DNA of 48,054 bases, from IMG/VR virus record IMGVR_UViG_2563366844_000004; one strand, 5' to 3'. The DNA comes from a virus (taxonomy: Duplodnaviria; Heunggongvirae; Uroviricota; Caudoviricetes). Position 1 is the stretch's first letter. Every line of letters begins with the position of its first letter. Positions 23,967-36,358 of this stretch are shown here, piece by piece. The notes below the pieces were generated by a model. That model had not been told where the DNA came from and searched no databases. It saw only the letters and a list, made by a program, of their open reading frames with translations. A program made the translations under genes and the position numbers.

Positions 23967-24218
23967 TTAGTCCTGATTTTTATCCACCCTGAGTAGTTCG
24001 CGCAGAGCAAAGGCATCCCCTTTTCTGGCAAGCTTAAACAATGCCGCTCGTAACTCGGCTTCACCTTTCGCTCTGCCCTTACGGATGGCCGCATAAAAAT
24101 CTGTCATTGCTTCCCGATTTTCTTTCAGTCGGTTCAGATCAACATCCAGAACGTCAGCGATTTGTTGTGCAGTCATCCGGCACGCTGCCAGAGACTCGAC
24201 TTTCGAATACGGAATCAT
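23967..24218 (-). CDS. Hypothetical small protein
   Basis: 83 aa ORF immediately upstream of the terminase small subunit. Confidence 0.3.
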   Translation of the reverse strand: MIPYSKVESLAACRMTAQQIADVLDVDLNRLKENREAMTDFYAAIRKGRAKGEAELRAALFKLARKGDAFALRELLRVDKNQD

Positions 24219-25107
24219 TTGTCACCCCCATTGATATGCAGGGTGTCTTCTTCCTGTATTTTTCGTGAAGGATTTTTACTGCAGCGTTGTTCCAGGTGAC
24301 CTGATGGTGAATGCGTTTATGGCTGGCACCCATCAGTGAGATTTTTACGCACGACGGCGCATACATGACGGAGTAAAAACTTTTAACGTAGGTTCCGGAA
24401 TCCAGATACAGCTCGGTCATTCCGCCGCTGTTTTTCTGCGTCTGTTTCTGCCCTAACTGGACAGCACCGATCGTCATAAACAATTCACCACAGCGACCGA
24501 GATTCGTGTACGTATTCACATCCTCGTTAATGCGCCCCATGAATGAGAACGGTCGATCAACCGAACAGATAAAGCTGTTCATTGCCTTGCGTTTCACCCA
24601 CGAAGCATGGCCGCCATTGTCACCAAGAAAATCCCCGCCCTGCGACATAGCGATGGAAAGAGCAGGTATTGATTCGTAGTACGCCAGCATTTCAGAAAGG
24701 ATCGCATCCAGTTTCCTTATCGGAAAATAGGCCTGGTCATAGTTGCGATCCACCCGAAACTGGAACTCGTGATAATCATCATCGAGCTGAATGAAGTATT
24801 TACACCCGACCAGTTTTGCCAGGTCGAAACAGGCATTACGGGCGTAAAAAATTGAGCGGCGGTCACAGAAATTATCGGCTTCGTCAAAACGACTGGCGAT
24901 ATCGGCTTTGGAAAACACCAGCACCTGTTCACCAAATTCAGCCATGTACTGATTCCGTGTCTTATCTTCATCATCAACAACGATAAAAATTTTCCCGGTA
25001 TAGCCAGCACGACGCAACGTCCGGTAAGTCAGAACTTTGTCCGGTCGCCCGTGAGTCAGAATAAAGGCGCAAAAATCATCACGCATATTCCTCCTCCTCA
25101 CCACCAT
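24154..25107 (-). CDS. Hypothetical protein (YdaY-position protein; LDDDY acidic motif)
   Basis: 317 aa ORF translationally coupled to the upstream ParB-like gene; occupies the position of ydaY in Rac. Confidence 0.35.
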   Translation of the reverse strand: MVVRRRNMRDDFCAFILTHGRPDKVLTYRTLRRAGYTGKIFIVVDDEDKTRNQYMAEFGEQVLVFSKADIASRFDEADNFCDRRSIFYARNACFDLAKLVGCKYFIQLDDDYHEFQFRVDRNYDQAYFPIRKLDAILSEMLAYYESIPALSIAMSQGGDFLGDNGGHASWVKRKAMNSFICSVDRPFSFMGRINEDVNTYTNLGRCGELFMTIGAVQLGQKQTQKNSGGMTELYLDSGTYVKSFYSVMYAPSCVKISLMGASHKRIHHQVTWNNAAVKILHEKYRKKTPCISMGVTNDSVFESRVSGSVPDDCTTNR

Positions 25108-25870
25108 GCATGATCTCCACCATGCGCTGCGTCATCCGGACAAATCCATTTTCAATAGCCTGCTGATAATCAATGATCACCAGCGCCGACTCCTCGAAAA
25201 AACACTGAATTTCAGAGGGGGCGTGAGCGTAATAGTCCGCAATTCTGCTGAAATTAAACACCGTGTGACGTTCTGCCGCACACAGGAGGAATTTCTCAAT
25301 ATCAGGCTCAAGGGACGCCGAACGTATCCGGCTGATCAGCTCCTGAGTTTTCGTATCGTCGTACAGTTCACTGATATCCGGTTTACCGCCCGACGGCTCA
25401 TAAACAGGCGTATCAATTTTCGTCGTATACGGCTCCTCCTCATTTCCTGTACCGGGCAAAACATCCGTCAACAGTTCATCAATTTCTGTCGGGATGAAGC
25501 CTGTCAGGGAGACATCAAAATCAGCATTGATTAGGTCCGACAGCTCCATCCGCAACAGATCTTCATCCCAGCCAGCATTCATCGGCAGGCGATTATCTGC
25601 CAGGCGGTACGCCTTTTTCTGCTCATCCGTCAGGCCAGACAGAACAATGACCGGAACAGAATCCATTTTGAGCATTTCAGCCGCCATAACACGACCGTGA
25701 CCCGCAATAATTTCGCCCTTTTCGTCAATCAGCACCGGATTAGTCCAGCCGAATTGCTTAATACTTTCTACCAGTTGTGCCACCTGCTCAGGGCTGTGCG
25801 TCCTGGCGTTGTGCGCATACGGTGACAATTCTTGTAATGGGCGATAGACTATCTTTAATTTCTCGCTCAT
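25079..25870 (-). CDS. ParB-like nuclease domain protein (YnaK-like, full length)
   Basis: 263 aa; N-terminal ParB/sulfiredoxin-type motif ...PVLIDEKGEIIAGHGRVMAA...; acidic C-terminus. Confidence 0.7.
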   Translation of the reverse strand: MSEKLKIVYRPLQELSPYAHNARTHSPEQVAQLVESIKQFGWTNPVLIDEKGEIIAGHGRVMAAEMLKMDSVPVIVLSGLTDEQKKAYRLADNRLPMNAGWDEDLLRMELSDLINADFDVSLTGFIPTEIDELLTDVLPGTGNEEEPYTTKIDTPVYEPSGGKPDISELYDDTKTQELISRIRSASLEPDIEKFLLCAAERHTVFNFSRIADYYAHAPSEIQCFFEESALVIIDYQQAIENGFVRMTQRMVEIMHGGEEEEYA

Positions 25871-26007
25871 ACAGCCTTGCTTTATGAATAAAACGCACCC
25901 CAGCAGCCAGTGCTACTGGGGACGGAGGGGTTGCTGGTAAAGTTAGGTATTGGATCAATGAGTGAGTCAACATAATATTAAACTCACAATTATAAATCAG
26001 CCATATA

Positions 26008-31899: not shown

Positions 31900-33506
31900 T
31901 TATACGGAAACTGGCACACGAGCAGGCAATGGATAGTGAGCCCAGTTATTAGCATTTAAAGCTCTTACGCCATCAGCATAAACTTGTGTGTTTCCATCTA
32001 ATGATTTTAAAGTTACTACAATAGTTACAGGTAAAGGCTCCATTAAGGCCGGTTCATTCGCTCTCAACGTTGTTTTAGCCTGAAGAGCCCAGTTACCCGA
32101 AGTAATTCCTTTATTAAATGCCTTGCGATGAATTTTTACTGGTAACCACTTTCCACCATGCTCAATTTGAGCTCTCTCATATCCAGATTGACCGTTTTCT
32201 CCTTCCATAGGCACTTTTCCTTTTATAGTATTATTCTCAATTAAGCCAAAACTTAGCTCTACGTTCGCGCGAACATATTCACTGCCGGCATTAGGGTTCA
32301 GTGGTGGTGCATATGCAGCAGTAATTACAATCTCACCTTTAAATTTTCCATTTTGAATAAGTGCCGATGGTATGGGATAGTTATCCTTTCTCCACCTCAC
32401 CCCAGGAACCAAGAATGTTTGGAAAATCAGAGTAAACCTATCATCACTATCATATAAGGTCTCAATAACTTCATTAGGAATTCCCGCTCCCAAATAGCGT
32501 CTTTCACTTGGCGAGTAATCAGGAGAAGATAATTGAGCGGAATGAATTAATAATGCTTTAATCAATGATGGTGAAACATTAAAGTCTGTATTAGTGGCTA
32601 TTCTCTGCCATGTATGCGCAGCTAAACTTGCCACAATTGGAGCAGCAAAACTAGTACCAAAATTAGAGCAAAGCCTATTATCTGGCCCTACGACCTTTAA
32701 ACTGCTTGCTCCTACATTCCAAGGTCTATGAACCCCACCGCCAGCATGGATTATATCTGGCTTTGGAGTAAATACAGGCCCAGGGCCACGACGAGTATAT
32801 GGTGTCGGTGTTCCAATTTCACTTAAAGCATCATTAGCTTCCATATGAGAAACTGAACCAACTGTTAGTGCTCGGACTGACTCTCCAGGAGAGGAAATTA
32901 AATCAGCACCTCCAAGCGGATCAGGATTTGGCCATGTACGTATAGGTTCATCTACATAATTACCTGCAGCAACTACAAACAAAATACCAAATTTATCGCT
33001 GAGCCGATCTAACTCCATCGCAAAATCACTAAACGTCTGCTCATTACATGGTCCGCCTCCCAAAGACAAATTCCAGACTTTTATATCTGGTCTTTTATTT
33101 ACAGCATCTGCTAGCCTCAGAATTAAATCTGATATATAAGATCCATTTTCATCTAAGGCACAAACATCATGGATTTTAGATTTTGTATCAGGAATCCATG
33201 GATGATTGTCATTTAAAAAATGAGCGCCTGATATCAATGAAGACACCATAGTCCCATGTTCATAACTCGTATCAGGAGGAATTACGTATGTTTCCCTACT
33301 CACTACCCAAGGAGTAATTGTTGCCGCGATGGGGCTTACCCCAGTGTCAAATACAGCAACAATGGGTAATTCTTCTGATGGTACGGGAAAGCTATTTGTT
33401 TCAATGCCAACAGAATCACTTACACTAACCGGGAATGCTGAATATTTTGGTTCAGGAATTAACGTTCTTATACCCGGGTAATCAATGAGAATGTCTAATA
33501 TATATC
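31900..33506 (-). pseudogene. S8 subtilisin-like serine peptidase, 3-prime fragment (catalytic domain plus C-terminal domain) of an IS903-interrupted gene
   Basis: Catalytic motifs all present: VAVFDTGV (Asp), HGTMVSS (His), AAGN (oxyanion Asn), GTSFAAP (Ser); reading frame open from the IS boundary at 33506 (track ORF begins at an internal GTG at 33303). Confidence 0.8.
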
Positions 33507-34562
33507 GGCTTTGTTGAATAAATAAGATTTCGTGCGAACGACCCTGTAGCTGGCTGGATTTTCAGGCAATACGCACGCTTTCTGGCATCCCAGCCTTTGT
33601 CATCCTGTTCAACGCACGCACCATGGCCATAGCTTCCGCTACCTGACCATCGTAGTCACGCAGCGTCAGTGAATCTCCCAACAACTGCTTCATTCTGTAC
33701 ATTGCCGTTTCCGCTATCGAGCGACGGTTATATTCCGTTGTCCATTTCCACCGTGCATTGCTTCCGCTCAGCCGCTGATTAGCAACGGCACGGTTGCGGT
33801 CTGCGTACTCACCGGGCCAGTAACCTGCTCCTTTTCGGGGAGGAATAAGCGCGCTGATTTTTTTGCGGCGCAGTTCATCGTGACAGAGCCGGGTATCGTA
33901 AGCCCCGTCTGCCGCGGCTGCCCTGATTTTTCTGTGAGTCTGCCGGATAAGGCCCGGGAAGGCTTCTGAGTCCGTGACGTTATTCAGCGACAGGTCTGCA
34001 CAGACAACTTCATGTGTGTTGCTGTCAACAGCAAGATGCAACTTTCGCCAGATACGACGGCGCTCTTTGCCGTGCTTTCTGACTTTCCATTCGCCTTCAC
34101 CAAAGACCTTCAGCCCGGTGGAATCAATCACCAGGTGTGCGATTTCACCCCGGGTGGACGTTTTGAAACTGACATTAACCGACTTTGCCCGCTTACTGAC
34201 ACTGGTGTAATCCGGGCAGCGCAACGGAACGTTCATCAGGGCAAAAATGGAATCAATAAAACCCTGCGCAGCCCGCAGGGTCAGCCGGAATACGCGTTTA
34301 ATCACCAGAACGGTGGTGATGGCGAGATCAGAATAGCGCTGGGGCCTTCCTCGTGATGAAGGCGTTGCCGACTCATACCAGGCCTGAATCGCTTCATCAT
34401 CCAGCCAGAAAGTGAGGGAGCCACGGTTGATGAGAGCTTTGTTGTAGGTGGACCAGTTGGTGATTCTGAACTTTTGCTTTGCCACGGAATGGTCTGTGTT
34501 GTCGGGAGGATGCGTGATCTGATCCTTCAACTCAGCAAAAGTTCGATTTATTCAACAAAGCC
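33507..34562 (-). mobile_element. IS903 (IS5 family) insertion sequence, about 1056 bp
   Basis: Terminal inverted repeats ggctttgttgaataaat at both ends; perfect 9 bp direct target duplication atatatatc at 33498-33506 and 34563-34571; encodes 307 aa transposase. Confidence 0.9.
33562..34485 (-). CDS. IS903 transposase (DDE)
   Basis: 307 aa from GTG: VAKQKFRITNWSTYNKALINRGSLTFWLDDEAIQAWY... matches IS903 transposase as I recall it; track ORF extends 15 codons upstream. Confidence 0.9.
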   Translation of the reverse strand: MAKQKFRITNWSTYNKALINRGSLTFWLDDEAIQAWYESATPSSRGRPQRYSDLAITTVLVIKRVFRLTLRAAQGFIDSIFALMNVPLRCPDYTSVSKRAKSVNVSFKTSTRGEIAHLVIDSTGLKVFGEGEWKVRKHGKERRRIWRKLHLAVDSNTHEVVCADLSLNNVTDSEAFPGLIRQTHRKIRAAAADGAYDTRLCHDELRRKKISALIPPRKGAGYWPGEYADRNRAVANQRLSGSNARWKWTTEYNRRSIAETAMYRMKQLLGDSLTLRDYDGQVAEAMAMVRALNRMTKAGMPESVRIA

Positions 34563-35229
34563 ATATATATCTATCATTTGGGGATAAATCCATTATCCTT
34601 AATAAGGGAAGACCACATTTTTGTCTAATCTCATCATATTTAACTCCGTGTTGTTCTAATATAGAAATAACGTTTTCATAGTTGTTGTAAGTTGCATCTT
34701 CACCTGTGTACTCAAATAGTCGTACAAGGATGTTTGATGATTCAAACAAACCATCAGTGCCTCCTGGAACCTTCCTATTCTCATCCCAAGGTTCAATGCG
34801 CTCAATCGCGCTTAGATTAGCCAAAATCGCTTTAATATTCCGATGTAAAATGACTGACTCTAATACGTCAAAACAGCCGGCATGAGCAGCAACCAACATT
34901 TCATCTATTTTGGCATGACCGGCATTTTGCAATCCAGCCTCTTGAGCAATTTTGTTCGGCCTATGCGTTTTGGCTATTCCCTGGTCTCTTAATTTGAAAA
35001 CCAAAGTACCCAAGCTTCCAGGGTACTCTGAAAGTTTGGATTCTAAATAATGTTTACTGGTTGTTAAATTTCTTACTAGCCCTTGTCTATATTCGGCTGT
35101 TACATCAACCAATACCTTTGCCCCACCGCCAGCGTTTACTATTGCACCCAAGTCACTACTGGAAAAAGGGATTCTTAACATTGGGTTTGTAACTTTTGCG
35201 TTACTAAACTGTGTACCCCTTCTGCTCAT
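34563..35229 (-). pseudogene. 5-prime fragment (N-terminal about 222 aa domain) of the IS903-interrupted S8 peptidase gene
   Basis: Frame ...PNDRYI runs into the IS (W-L-C-stop inside the inverted repeat); removing IS plus one TSD copy fuses it in frame to ...LDILIDYPG... of the downstream fragment; start overlaps ATPase stop. Confidence 0.75.
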
Positions 35230-36358
35230 ATGCTCCTGACTCCTTCAGAATGTTTGAAATTACTCTTGATGTAAGTTTGTACAAATTAGCAAGAACTCTG
35301 ATAGAAAATAATTTTTTATCTTTAGAACGTAACCAACGAATTTCATCTTCGTAAGTGCTTAAATTTACACCTTCCATAAGCGATTGAGCAAGATACAAAC
35401 GCCTATACAATTTATGGTGATTTATCACACTTGCACCTTCAATAACTGCATCCCTACGTGCATCCAAGCTCACCTGTTCAATTATTGCTCCGGATAATCC
35501 TTCCGATTTTCTTGATAAATCACTTAAATCTAGATCGCTACATATCATATTCTTTAAACGATTTTTCCAAATTAACTCTCTCTGATGTATGTCAGGCAGA
35601 GGCATTGGAATTCTGAAGCTAAATCGCCTCCAGATTGCAGGATCCAGAAGTTGCTCATGGTTAGTTGAGGCAATAATTACCGTATCCTCTGATGCCGCAT
35701 CCATATTCTGCAATAGTGAAATGACAACTCGCTGAAGCTCACCTATATCTCTCTCATTACCTCTTGCTCCAGCTAAAGCATCAAATTCGTCTAAAAAAAG
35801 CACTGATGGCCTCTGCATTACATAATCGAAAACCTGTCTAAGATTTTTGCTGGTTTGTCCCAATAAACTACTAATCAAAGTATCGCAACGCACTGTAAGA
35901 AGTGGAAAATCTAAGCGGGTAGCGATGTACTTAGATAACATAGTCTTACCTGTTCCTGGCTTTCCATACACGAGCATACGACTCGGCAATGCTGCATCAG
36001 CTTTAACAAACTCATCATAACGTTGAACATTAGTGATAAACTCTTCAACACGGGTACTGATTGCTGCAGGCAGAAAAATCTCTGAACTGTCTAATTTAGG
36101 ATAACTGACATCAACAGTGTTGAGTCGACTATCAATATCTACCGGTAATGAGCCCAGAGATATCCCACCTCCAGCCCTTTGAGCTCCTGCCAACGCCTGG
36201 GGAGCTCTAAGCAACCTTTCTCTTATCATTCTGGCTTGCTTGACCTCCCCTTTTTGTTCGAGCTTATCTGCCAGCAACCCAGCATAATTACTAGCCATCG
36301 AAGCATTTGCCTTTGTTGCACCTTCAATGATTTTTAACACTTCTGATAAATAATCCAT
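35204..36358 (-). CDS. AAA+ ATPase (classical AAA domain), partner of the S8 peptidase
   Basis: 384 aa; Walker A GKPGTGKT, Walker B LFLDEFDAL, sensor-1 IIASTN, Arg finger region WRRF; 190 bp AT-rich intergenic region upstream. Confidence 0.85.
   Translation of the reverse strand: MDYLSEVLKIIEGATKANASMASNYAGLLADKLEQKGEVKQARMIRERLLRAPQALAGAQRAGGGISLGSLPVDIDSRLNTVDVSYPKLDSSEIFLPAAISTRVEEFITNVQRYDEFVKADAALPSRMLVYGKPGTGKTMLSKYIATRLDFPLLTVRCDTLISSLLGQTSKNLRQVFDYVMQRPSVLFLDEFDALAGARGNERDIGELQRVVISLLQNMDAASEDTVIIASTNHEQLLDPAIWRRFSFRIPMPLPDIHQRELIWKNRLKNMICSDLDLSDLSRKSEGLSGAIIEQVSLDARRDAVIEGASVINHHKLYRRLYLAQSLMEGVNLSTYEDEIRWLRSKDKKLFSIRVLANLYKLTSRVISNILKESGAYEQKGYTV

Follow-up and report, generated by a model that had tools for sequence, protein, structure and literature searches.

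The TET-associated glycosyltransferase (TAGT) family (Pfam PF20691) includes the beta-glucosyl-HMC-alpha-glucosyltransferase of phages T2 and T6 and the GT-A enzymes linked to TET/5mYOX. The phage members characterised so far transfer sugars to DNA (PMC13216743; bioRxiv 10.1101/2023.12.21.572611), and the T2/T6 enzyme places a second glucose on glucosylated 5-hydroxymethylcytosine (glucosyl-5hmC) (PMC13216743). The phage GT-A enzymes that act on DNA carry an R…DDD…ED motif and are structural homologues of the trypanosomatid base-J glucosyltransferase (JGT), which has the same motif (bioRxiv 10.1101/2023.12.21.572611). Some phage homologues of ParB consist of a nucleoside triphosphate (NTP)-binding domain (NBD), a long linker, and a C-terminal domain (CTD) but lack a DNA-binding domain. 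One subclass of 5mYOX thymine dioxygenases requires such homologues as activators on double-stranded DNA; both NBD and CTD are needed, and cognate pairs are specific (PMC13229309). ParB domains also occur fused to DNA methyltransferases, and such fusions are widespread in prophages (PMC12704722). ParB proteins had earlier been proposed to guide modification enzymes to DNA at about the time of packaging. The ParB–DNA methyltransferase fusions are often found just upstream of terminase genes. Here we describe a two-gene cassette of a Rac-like lambdoid prophage of Escherichia coli, contained in a 48,054-nucleotide stretch of DNA (IMG/VR record IMGVR_UViG_2563366844_000004; hereafter the window). 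It encodes a TAGT-family glycosyltransferase of 310 amino acids and a ParB-like accessory protein of 263 amino acids. One large, highly conserved TAGT sub-family is therefore not solitary but has an obligate partner, usually with a ParB domain, a feature that connects this sub-family with the recently discovered ParB activators of DNA modification.

All coordinates given for the window refer to features on its minus strand. The original prediction had described a ParB-like nuclease gene translationally coupled to a gene for a 317-residue protein of unknown function, and proposed that the two might act on DNA. Both open reading frames (ORFs) are present, at 25870-25079 (263 amino acids) and 25107-24154 (317 amino acids), but the second most likely starts at the ATG at 25086 and thus encodes 310 residues (25086-24154), because homologues begin with MRDDFCAF in the alignment and the PGAP annotation of E. 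coli SE11 uses the 310-residue form. Its start codon and the stop codon of the ParB-like gene share an 8-nucleotide overlap (ATGCGTGA, 25079-25086), and a GAGGAGGAGG stretch stands just upstream of the ATG (25090-25099). At the other end, the glycosyltransferase gene overlaps the next small gene by 23 nucleotides, by correspondence with the SE11 annotation. With overlaps on both sides, the genes form a tight operon. The same gene arrangement is annotated in SE11, where the glycosyltransferase is called a “hypothetical protein.” At least 80% of the 2.1-kb segment is found at 90% identity or more in 867 of 5426 complete E. coli genomes, which argues against a chance pair of ORFs; the segment also occurs in ten phage records.

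The second protein can no longer be described as one of unknown family. It scores far above threshold for both PF20691 (121 bits against a cut-off of 27.5, E 8.4e-35, residues 15-229) and PHROG 842 (“beta-glucosyl-HMC-alpha-glucosyltransferase,” E 1.2e-103, residues 8-305), and the GT-A fold that marks the TAGT family is found in it as well. We aligned 33 sequences, including bacterial ones and those of the archaeal virus HHTV-2, Lactobacillus phage phi jlb1, and Vibrio phage pv27. Invariant positions are R14, D71-N72, Y81-A-R83, D102-D-D-Y105, Q149/G151-D152, R166-K167, N187-E-D-V190, T216-Q217, R258, and H260-H261. The acidic LDDDY motif that the original prediction had pointed out (D102-D103-D104-Y105, codons 24772-24783) belongs to this set and corresponds to the DxD metal/nucleotide-sugar motif. 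The pattern of R14, DDD102-104, and NED187-189 matches the R…DDD…ED signature of the phage GT-A DNA glycosyltransferases. With the TAGT family the enzyme thus shares the profile, the fold, the motif, and the phage origin, and, judged by these matches, it is a GT-A glycosyltransferase with intact catalytic motifs.

The enzyme is mildly basic (pI about 8), and residues 281-310 form a tail that is specific to the E. coli lineage and created by the overlap with the next gene. A sequence search of the PDB returned no meaningful relatives, no PADLOC or NCBIfam family matched the enzyme, and UniRef labels the prophage enzyme “GREB1-related.” The AlphaFold2 model was unreliable for residues 186-310, as well as for the CTD of the partner, and we drew no inference from those parts.

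The 263-residue protein (phrog_620, E 8.5e-91) is organized in an N-terminal NTP-binding domain of the ParB/Srx type, an acidic linker, and a CTD; homologues of full length are found across many genera. Like its relatives, the protein is very acidic overall (pI 4.5, net charge −25). The N-terminal domain (approximately residues 1-135, 25466-25870) is recognized by profile, fold, and conservation. Its match to ParB_N (PF02195) is weak but above threshold (28.9 bits against 26.3). Conserved features are box II “AGHGR” (residues 56-60) and the invariant N21 and D92-N93, and the profile of the domain aligns with the CTPase domains of Noc and Spo0J, with GHGR opposite the GERR of box II. Foldseek retrieved ParB-CDP (E 7e-7), Noc, PadC, and KorB (E 7e-7 to 1e-4). 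Nothing supports the nuclease role implied by the name of the domain; it resembles the NTP-binding clamp domains of ParB, Noc, and KorB. With these CTP-dependent DNA clamps the protein shares the N-terminal fold and the NTP-binding motifs, including the box II arginine. In contrast to them, it is acidic, a Pfam scan detected no helix-turn-helix (HTH) DNA-binding domain, neither an annotated ParA nor parS is found in the prophage, and the TIGR00180 score (38.5) lies below the cut-off of 58.45.

The N-terminal domain also aligns with families of phage DNA methyltransferase fusions, namely phrog_498 (E 1.2e-50, residues 3-141) and the PADLOC family MTase_II (PDLC03229, E 2.2e-38, residues 10-144), and 24 of 60 sampled phage tblastn matches of the domain fall under genes annotated as DNA methylases. 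The idea that ParB domains of this kind pair with DNA-modification enzymes is borne out to the extent that the domain belongs to the same subfamily as that fused to phage DNA methyltransferases. The 263-residue protein itself contains no methyltransferase domain: the match to the fusion family ends at about residue 144, and the remainder is the CTD.

Linker and CTD (residues 141-263, 25082-25450) are delimited by conservation, which is as strong here as in the N-terminal domain, and form the part of the protein that always accompanies the glycosyltransferase. An invariant motif, Y-T-x-K-I-x-x-P-x-Y-E-P (residues 148-159, 25394-25429), precedes the helical domain and lies in a linker that is modeled with low confidence and is probably disordered. 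The helical domain that follows has the pattern FL..AA.RH..F.F..IA.YY…Q.L.E.SALVIID. Searches placed the CTD in no Pfam family, gave it no separate PHROG family, and returned no relative from the PDB; the CTD family comprises 1189 clusters at 50% identity among 1.84 billion proteins. Among the 150 best CTD representatives, 119 carry a ParB domain in front, 19 are short, and 12 have an N-terminal part that the profile does not recognize; none is fused to a TAGT or to another enzyme. A single 161-residue “fusion” (P0241) was rejected, being a fragment that spans the overlapping gene junction in E. coli.

We built profiles for the enzyme, the ParB domain, and the CTD and scanned them against the six-frame ORFs of all fetched loci. 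In each of the 90 loci anchored on a TAGT gene, the gene directly before it on the same strand encodes a CTD and overlaps the TAGT start. For a reciprocal scan, viral contigs were seeded with the CTD alone, which yielded 76 new loci. Every one of them has a TAGT gene downstream on the same strand, adjacent or overlapping in 74 cases and within 2.4 kb in the other two. The neighbor of the CTD protein is a TAGT in 166/166 loci, and no dioxygenase family was seen in this place. Gene overlaps in the other phages that were read range from 4 to 29 nucleotides, most of them being 4, 8, or 11. The two proteins also co-diverge (Mantel r 0.59, p 0.001; 65 non-redundant pairs below 90% identity). A structural or housekeeping fold of the larger ORF product, or a pair that is not kept together, had been named beforehand as outcomes that would speak against a joint function; the protein belongs to the TAGT family instead, and the pair is conserved at every locus examined, in both directions. 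Taken together, these findings support the proposal that a ParB-like protein is functionally coupled to an enzyme with a possible action on DNA; this enzyme is a member of a phage DNA glycosyltransferase family.

The arrangement varies in a few loci. L123 (949-1914) and L156 (3104-5474) are the sole CTD-anchored loci with a non-adjacent glycosyltransferase, with ∼1 and 2.4 kb between the genes, respectively. In a metagenomic prophage (L172, 8310-10861), one ParB-CTD gene is followed by two tandem TAGT paralogues (61% identical), which suggests a stepwise addition of two sugars by analogy with sequential glycosyltransferases that build disaccharides.

The ParB domain is the usual but dispensable front end of the partner, and the CTD is apparently what the enzyme needs. 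This follows from partners that consist of the CTD only: in 191-kb Vibrio phages (pv27; L010, 6459-7888) the partner is a protein of 139 amino acids with no other domain, and several metagenomic contigs contain internal genes that likewise appear to encode nothing but the CTD. The pairing proposed originally is therefore real, but the conserved partner of the enzyme is the CTD and not the ParB domain. Because the Vibrio phages do without the latter, NTP switching is not essential to the chemistry. In pv27, the pair sits among primase, helicase, and exonuclease genes and not beside the terminase.

Compared with the published description of 5mYOX176/ParB176 (PMC13229309), the accessory protein has a similar organization of NBD, linker, and CTD, likewise lacks a DNA-binding domain, adjoins a putative post-replicative DNA-modifying enzyme, and has conserved NTP-binding residues. 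However, its partner is a glycosyltransferase and not a dioxygenase, no cognate 5mYOX gene is adjacent (0/166 loci), and the CTD alone can serve as partner, whereas in the 5mYOX systems glycosyltransferases accompany the ParB-independent clade. The ParB–DNA methyltransferase fusions have a homologous N-terminal domain, but here the catalytic module is a separate glycosyltransferase polypeptide linked via the CTD. Within the TAGT family, the sub-family is distinct. Its identity to the T4-like member sampled, the TAGT of Aeromonas phage 65 from a phage lineage of the 5hmC type, is 22-24%; unlike the phage 65 protein, which has no ParB neighbor, it always occurs with a ParB-CTD or CTD partner gene, and no alpha- or beta-glucosyltransferase, TET/5mYOX, or hydroxymethylase accompanies it in the contexts checked. 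JGT, the reported structural homologue of the phage GT-A DNA glycosyltransferases, acts on 5-hydroxymethyluracil (5hmU) made by JBP, whereas no equivalent oxidase was found with the pair.

The cassette is found far beyond E. coli. In Salmonella, Klebsiella, Serratia, Pantoea, Yersinia, and further genera, its identity is 60-85%; it is 39-47% in cultured phages that infect Nocardia (NTR1) or Lactobacillus (phi jlb1, c5, and phages related to them) and in the haloarchaeal virus HHTV-2, and 27% in a Porphyromonas prophage. In the enterobacterial, Nocardia, Lactobacillus, HHTV-2, and Porphyromonas contexts it mostly lies directly upstream of terS/terL. The terminases next to it belong to at least three families (Terminase_6, Terminase_4/TerL_ATPase, and GpA), and the packaging modes of the carriers differ, with cos packaging in c5 and headful packaging in HHTV-2. 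In c5, the pair forms the first two genes after cos. From the differing terminase families and packaging modes, we conclude that the cassette moves as a unit between otherwise unrelated phages. A tie to one packaging mechanism was rejected, as cos, headful, and several terminase families all occur.

As stated in the original prediction, the pair is situated between the lysis and the packaging modules. The lysis genes (lysozyme and Rz, 28561-27603) are followed by trkG (27483-26008), the pair, a small gene resembling a terminase small subunit (24176-23967, longest ORF from 24218; phrog_309 and SE11 annotation), terS (23963-22869), and terL (22897-21587), the last two being identified by phrog_51/Terminase_2 matches for the terS-terL region and by the SE11 annotation. 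Between the trkG stop and the start of the ParB-like gene lies a terminator-like hairpin of 10 pairs (7 G-C) followed by TGCGTTTTAT (25898-25921), and no convincing promoter was found between this hairpin and the ParB-like gene. trkG is a low-GC insert (35-41%, versus 47-50% for the pair). Given the hairpin after trkG, the lack of a promoter, and the low-GC insert, we take the pair to open the packaging part of the late operon. A late transcript must read through the hairpin to reach the ParB-like, glycosyltransferase, and terminase genes, and we infer that the pair is expressed by Q-antiterminated late transcription through this site. A role in lysogenic conversion was rejected, because the pair belongs to the late operon and is preceded by a terminator-like site.

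The pair is best read as a DNA glycosyltransferase of two components that is expressed late, with the ParB-like protein as activator of the enzyme. This reading is favored by the obligate pairing, by a ParB domain of the methyltransferase type, by the placement in the late operon, and by relatives of the enzyme that act on DNA. We give this reading about an even chance. The 310-residue protein would be the catalytic subunit, a metal-dependent GT-A enzyme that takes its sugar from a nucleotide-sugar, and the 263-residue protein would be its dedicated accessory, with the CTD binding or completing the enzyme. By analogy with the ParB activators, the N-terminal domain may serve as an NTP-controlled switch or clamp that activates the enzyme or holds it on double-stranded DNA. 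Both proteins would be made at the start of the late (packaging) operon, so that newly replicated phage DNA could be glycosylated just before packaging, and the packaged genome would then be protected, or marked, at the next infection. More tentatively, the cassette could place the sugar directly on a canonical DNA component (an exocyclic base amine, a DNA end, or the backbone) without prior hydroxymethylation, with the ParB-type NTP switch as activator.

To our knowledge, the acceptors of the TAGT family are limited to 5hmC, glucosyl-5hmC, and 5hmU, and we know of phage DNA glycosylation only on hydroxymethylated or hydroxylated pyrimidines. The bases concerned are made by a TET/JBP-type dioxygenase or a thymidylate-synthase-like hydroxymethylase. 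Here lies the first of several observations that weigh against a DNA glycosyltransferase. We found no TET/JBP, no thymidylate-synthase-like hydroxymethylase, and no cytosine methyltransferase; the regions checked were the window, its counterpart in SE11, the whole genome of phage c5 (31.8 kb), and, for eleven different phage contexts, the 8-10 kb around the pair. Likewise, no alpha- or beta-glucosyltransferase and no hydroxymethylpyrimidine source was seen beside the pair in the window, the SE11 Rac prophage, the c5 genome, and the sampled neighborhoods. Because no source of 5hmC or 5hmU was found, the acceptor would have to differ from that of the characterised family members. The sub-family matches the “solitary TAGT” class, which is found in 288 of 753 TAGT-encoding phage genomes and whose function has been called undefined (PMC13216743). 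It also matches the glycosyltransferase contigs lacking a base-modifying neighbor (∼65%) that Pyle et al. set aside, and such glycosyltransferases were judged “less likely” to modify DNA by the authors of that survey (bioRxiv 10.1101/2023.12.21.572611). For the larger part of the phage GT-A genes, recent surveys thus offered no explanation.

Further points of this kind concern the proteins themselves. GREB1, a large cytoplasmic animal protein with a TAGT domain, is reported to glycosylate a protein; it is relevant here only in that the fold is not restricted to DNA. The accessory protein is acidic and has no recognizable DNA-binding domain, so that DNA binding is not to be assumed, and the ParB domain is absent from the Vibrio-phage partner. 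In the structure models, confidence is low both in the CTD and across the C-terminal half of the glycosyltransferase. A literature search returned no experimental data on the DNA of any phage carrying the pair, nothing on DNA modification in HHTV-2 or other carriers, and nothing on the function of ynaK, the K-12 counterpart of the ParB-like gene.

The main rival to a DNA acceptor is a protein acceptor. The enzyme would then glycosylate its own partner, at the invariant Tyr/Thr of YTxKIxxPxYEP, or a virion or packaging protein, with the acidic ParB-like protein acting as the substrate or as an adaptor to the target. We consider this rather unlikely. The TAGT domain of GREB1 reportedly O-GlcNAcylates a protein. 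An invariant and apparently disordered Tyr/Thr/Pro motif right before the CTD, a very acidic partner without a DNA-binding domain, the lack of an available hydroxylated base, and the adjoining head/packaging module would all suit a protein target. However, the ParB domain belongs to a subfamily that is otherwise attached to DNA methyltransferases, and the characterised phage TAGTs act on DNA (PMC13216743). A specific virion protein is a poor candidate for an enzyme whose cassette travels among phages with unrelated head and terminase genes and, in Vibrio phages, stands among replication genes. The identity of 41-44% between bacterial and archaeal viruses fits a universal acceptor.

Other acceptors are less probable. 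An anti-defence or metabolic module that acts on RNA, a nucleotide-derived immune signal, or an envelope precursor, with the ParB fold as a mere nucleotide sensor, seems improbable to us: the ParB-CTPase fold is found joined to many domains without a role in segregation, with variation in the NTPs that it binds (PMC12704722), and solitary TAGTs have acceptors “yet to be defined” (PMC13216743), but we detected no membrane segment, RNA-binding domain, or defence family in the proteins, PADLOC had no match for the enzyme, and DNA is indicated both by where the pair sits, at the start of the packaging operon, and by its connection with ParB domains of the methyltransferase type. Slightly less probable still is a classical TAGT that needs 5hmC, glucosyl-5hmC, or 5hmU, either on the DNA of a co- or superinfecting T-even-like phage or made by a hydroxymethylase encoded elsewhere. 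Family membership and the second glucose added to glucosyl-5hmC by the T2/T6 enzyme (PMC13216743) would fit such a role, whereas the distance from the T4-like TAGTs noted above does not. Nor does a late-operon pair behind a terminator-like site, which is probably silent in lysogens, and small complete genomes such as that of c5 encode no annotated candidate hydroxymethylase. We also know of no supply of hydroxymethylpyrimidines by Lactobacillus, Nocardia, or Haloarcula hosts. An ordinary ParB partition protein or nuclease that stands beside an unrelated gene by chance, as the database names “chromosome (plasmid) partitioning protein” and “ParB-like nuclease” would have it, has a negligible probability. 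The strictly reciprocal pairing and the gene overlap across domains of life contradict it, and a partition function was rejected on the low TIGR00180 score, the absence of a detected HTH, and the integrated state of a prophage without annotated ParA.

Much of what underlies a two-component DNA glycosyltransferase is already known, namely the enzyme family, the general link of ParB to DNA modification, and the activator role of ParB. The obligate partner of a large TAGT sub-family appears undescribed in the literature searched, which did not cover Iyer et al. 2013. So does the defining part of this partner, which is the new CTD and not the ParB domain, and so does a system of this kind, without a found hydroxymethylpyrimidine source, in a common E. 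coli prophage and in bacterial and archaeal viruses. Iyer et al. reportedly defined the TAGT family and discussed links to ParB, and may already mention TAGT-ParB neighborhoods. If the acceptor is DNA, the cassette would make a new DNA modification and provide a new escape of phages from restriction, and it would matter for the sequencing and cloning of such DNA. If the acceptor is a canonical DNA component, the modification would be of a new kind; direct glycosylation of canonical DNA would then be carried by about one-sixth of the sequenced E. coli genomes and by temperate phages whose hosts span at least four bacterial phyla and the haloarchaea. If the acceptor is not DNA, the family would be redirected toward protein glycosylation. 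As the prophage that carries the cassette is common in E. coli and inducible, and as the enzyme is naturally missing from K-12, both the acceptor and the role of the partner are open to standard genetics and nucleoside mass spectrometry.

The Rac prophage of K-12 had been said to carry only truncated ynaK and ydaY remnants at this position. This holds for ynaK, an 87-residue N-terminal fragment of the 263-residue ParB-like protein, but ydaY is no remnant of the glycosyltransferase gene; in intact relatives it is a tail-module gene, and it became fused to the ynaK fragment by a deletion. The glycosyltransferase gene is entirely absent from K-12.

The small ORF downstream of the glycosyltransferase gene (23967-24218, 69-83 amino acids) matches only the middle of phrog_309 (positions 145-218 of 319), and Yersinia prophages have a gene for 82 amino acids at the same place. 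Possibly this ORF represents a DNA-recognition portion of the small terminase that has become separate.

Pfam scans of the non-conserved cargo of the window returned IetA/IetS, IS5, and standard lambdoid genes only. The cargo between the Q-region and the replication genes (31900-36358) is an IetAS anti-phage/anti-plasmid system. It comprises IetA, an AAA ATPase (35204-36358; PADLOC E 9e-143), and the subtilase IetS in two pieces, an N-terminal one (34552-35229, IetS positions 3-209) and a C-terminal one (31900-33303, IetS positions 281-748), split by an IS5-family transposase gene (33562-34530) in this minus-strand cargo region. The system is probably inactivated. E. coli SE11 carries other cargo at this place, encoding DUF262 and TPR proteins.

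Two other carriers of the cassette have additional genes of note. On a Yersinia enterocolitica contig (L004, 2180-3332), genes that match the heat-labile enterotoxin A family (PF01375, Scabin-like) and the LT-IIB B-subunit family stand just upstream of the cassette and possibly encode a phage-borne AB5 toxin; they are absent from the otherwise similar locus L005. In a metagenomic phage with the cassette (L002, 15837-16894), two Glycos_transf_2 genes lie downstream of the major capsid gene and could serve a separate, virion- or envelope-directed glycosylation function.

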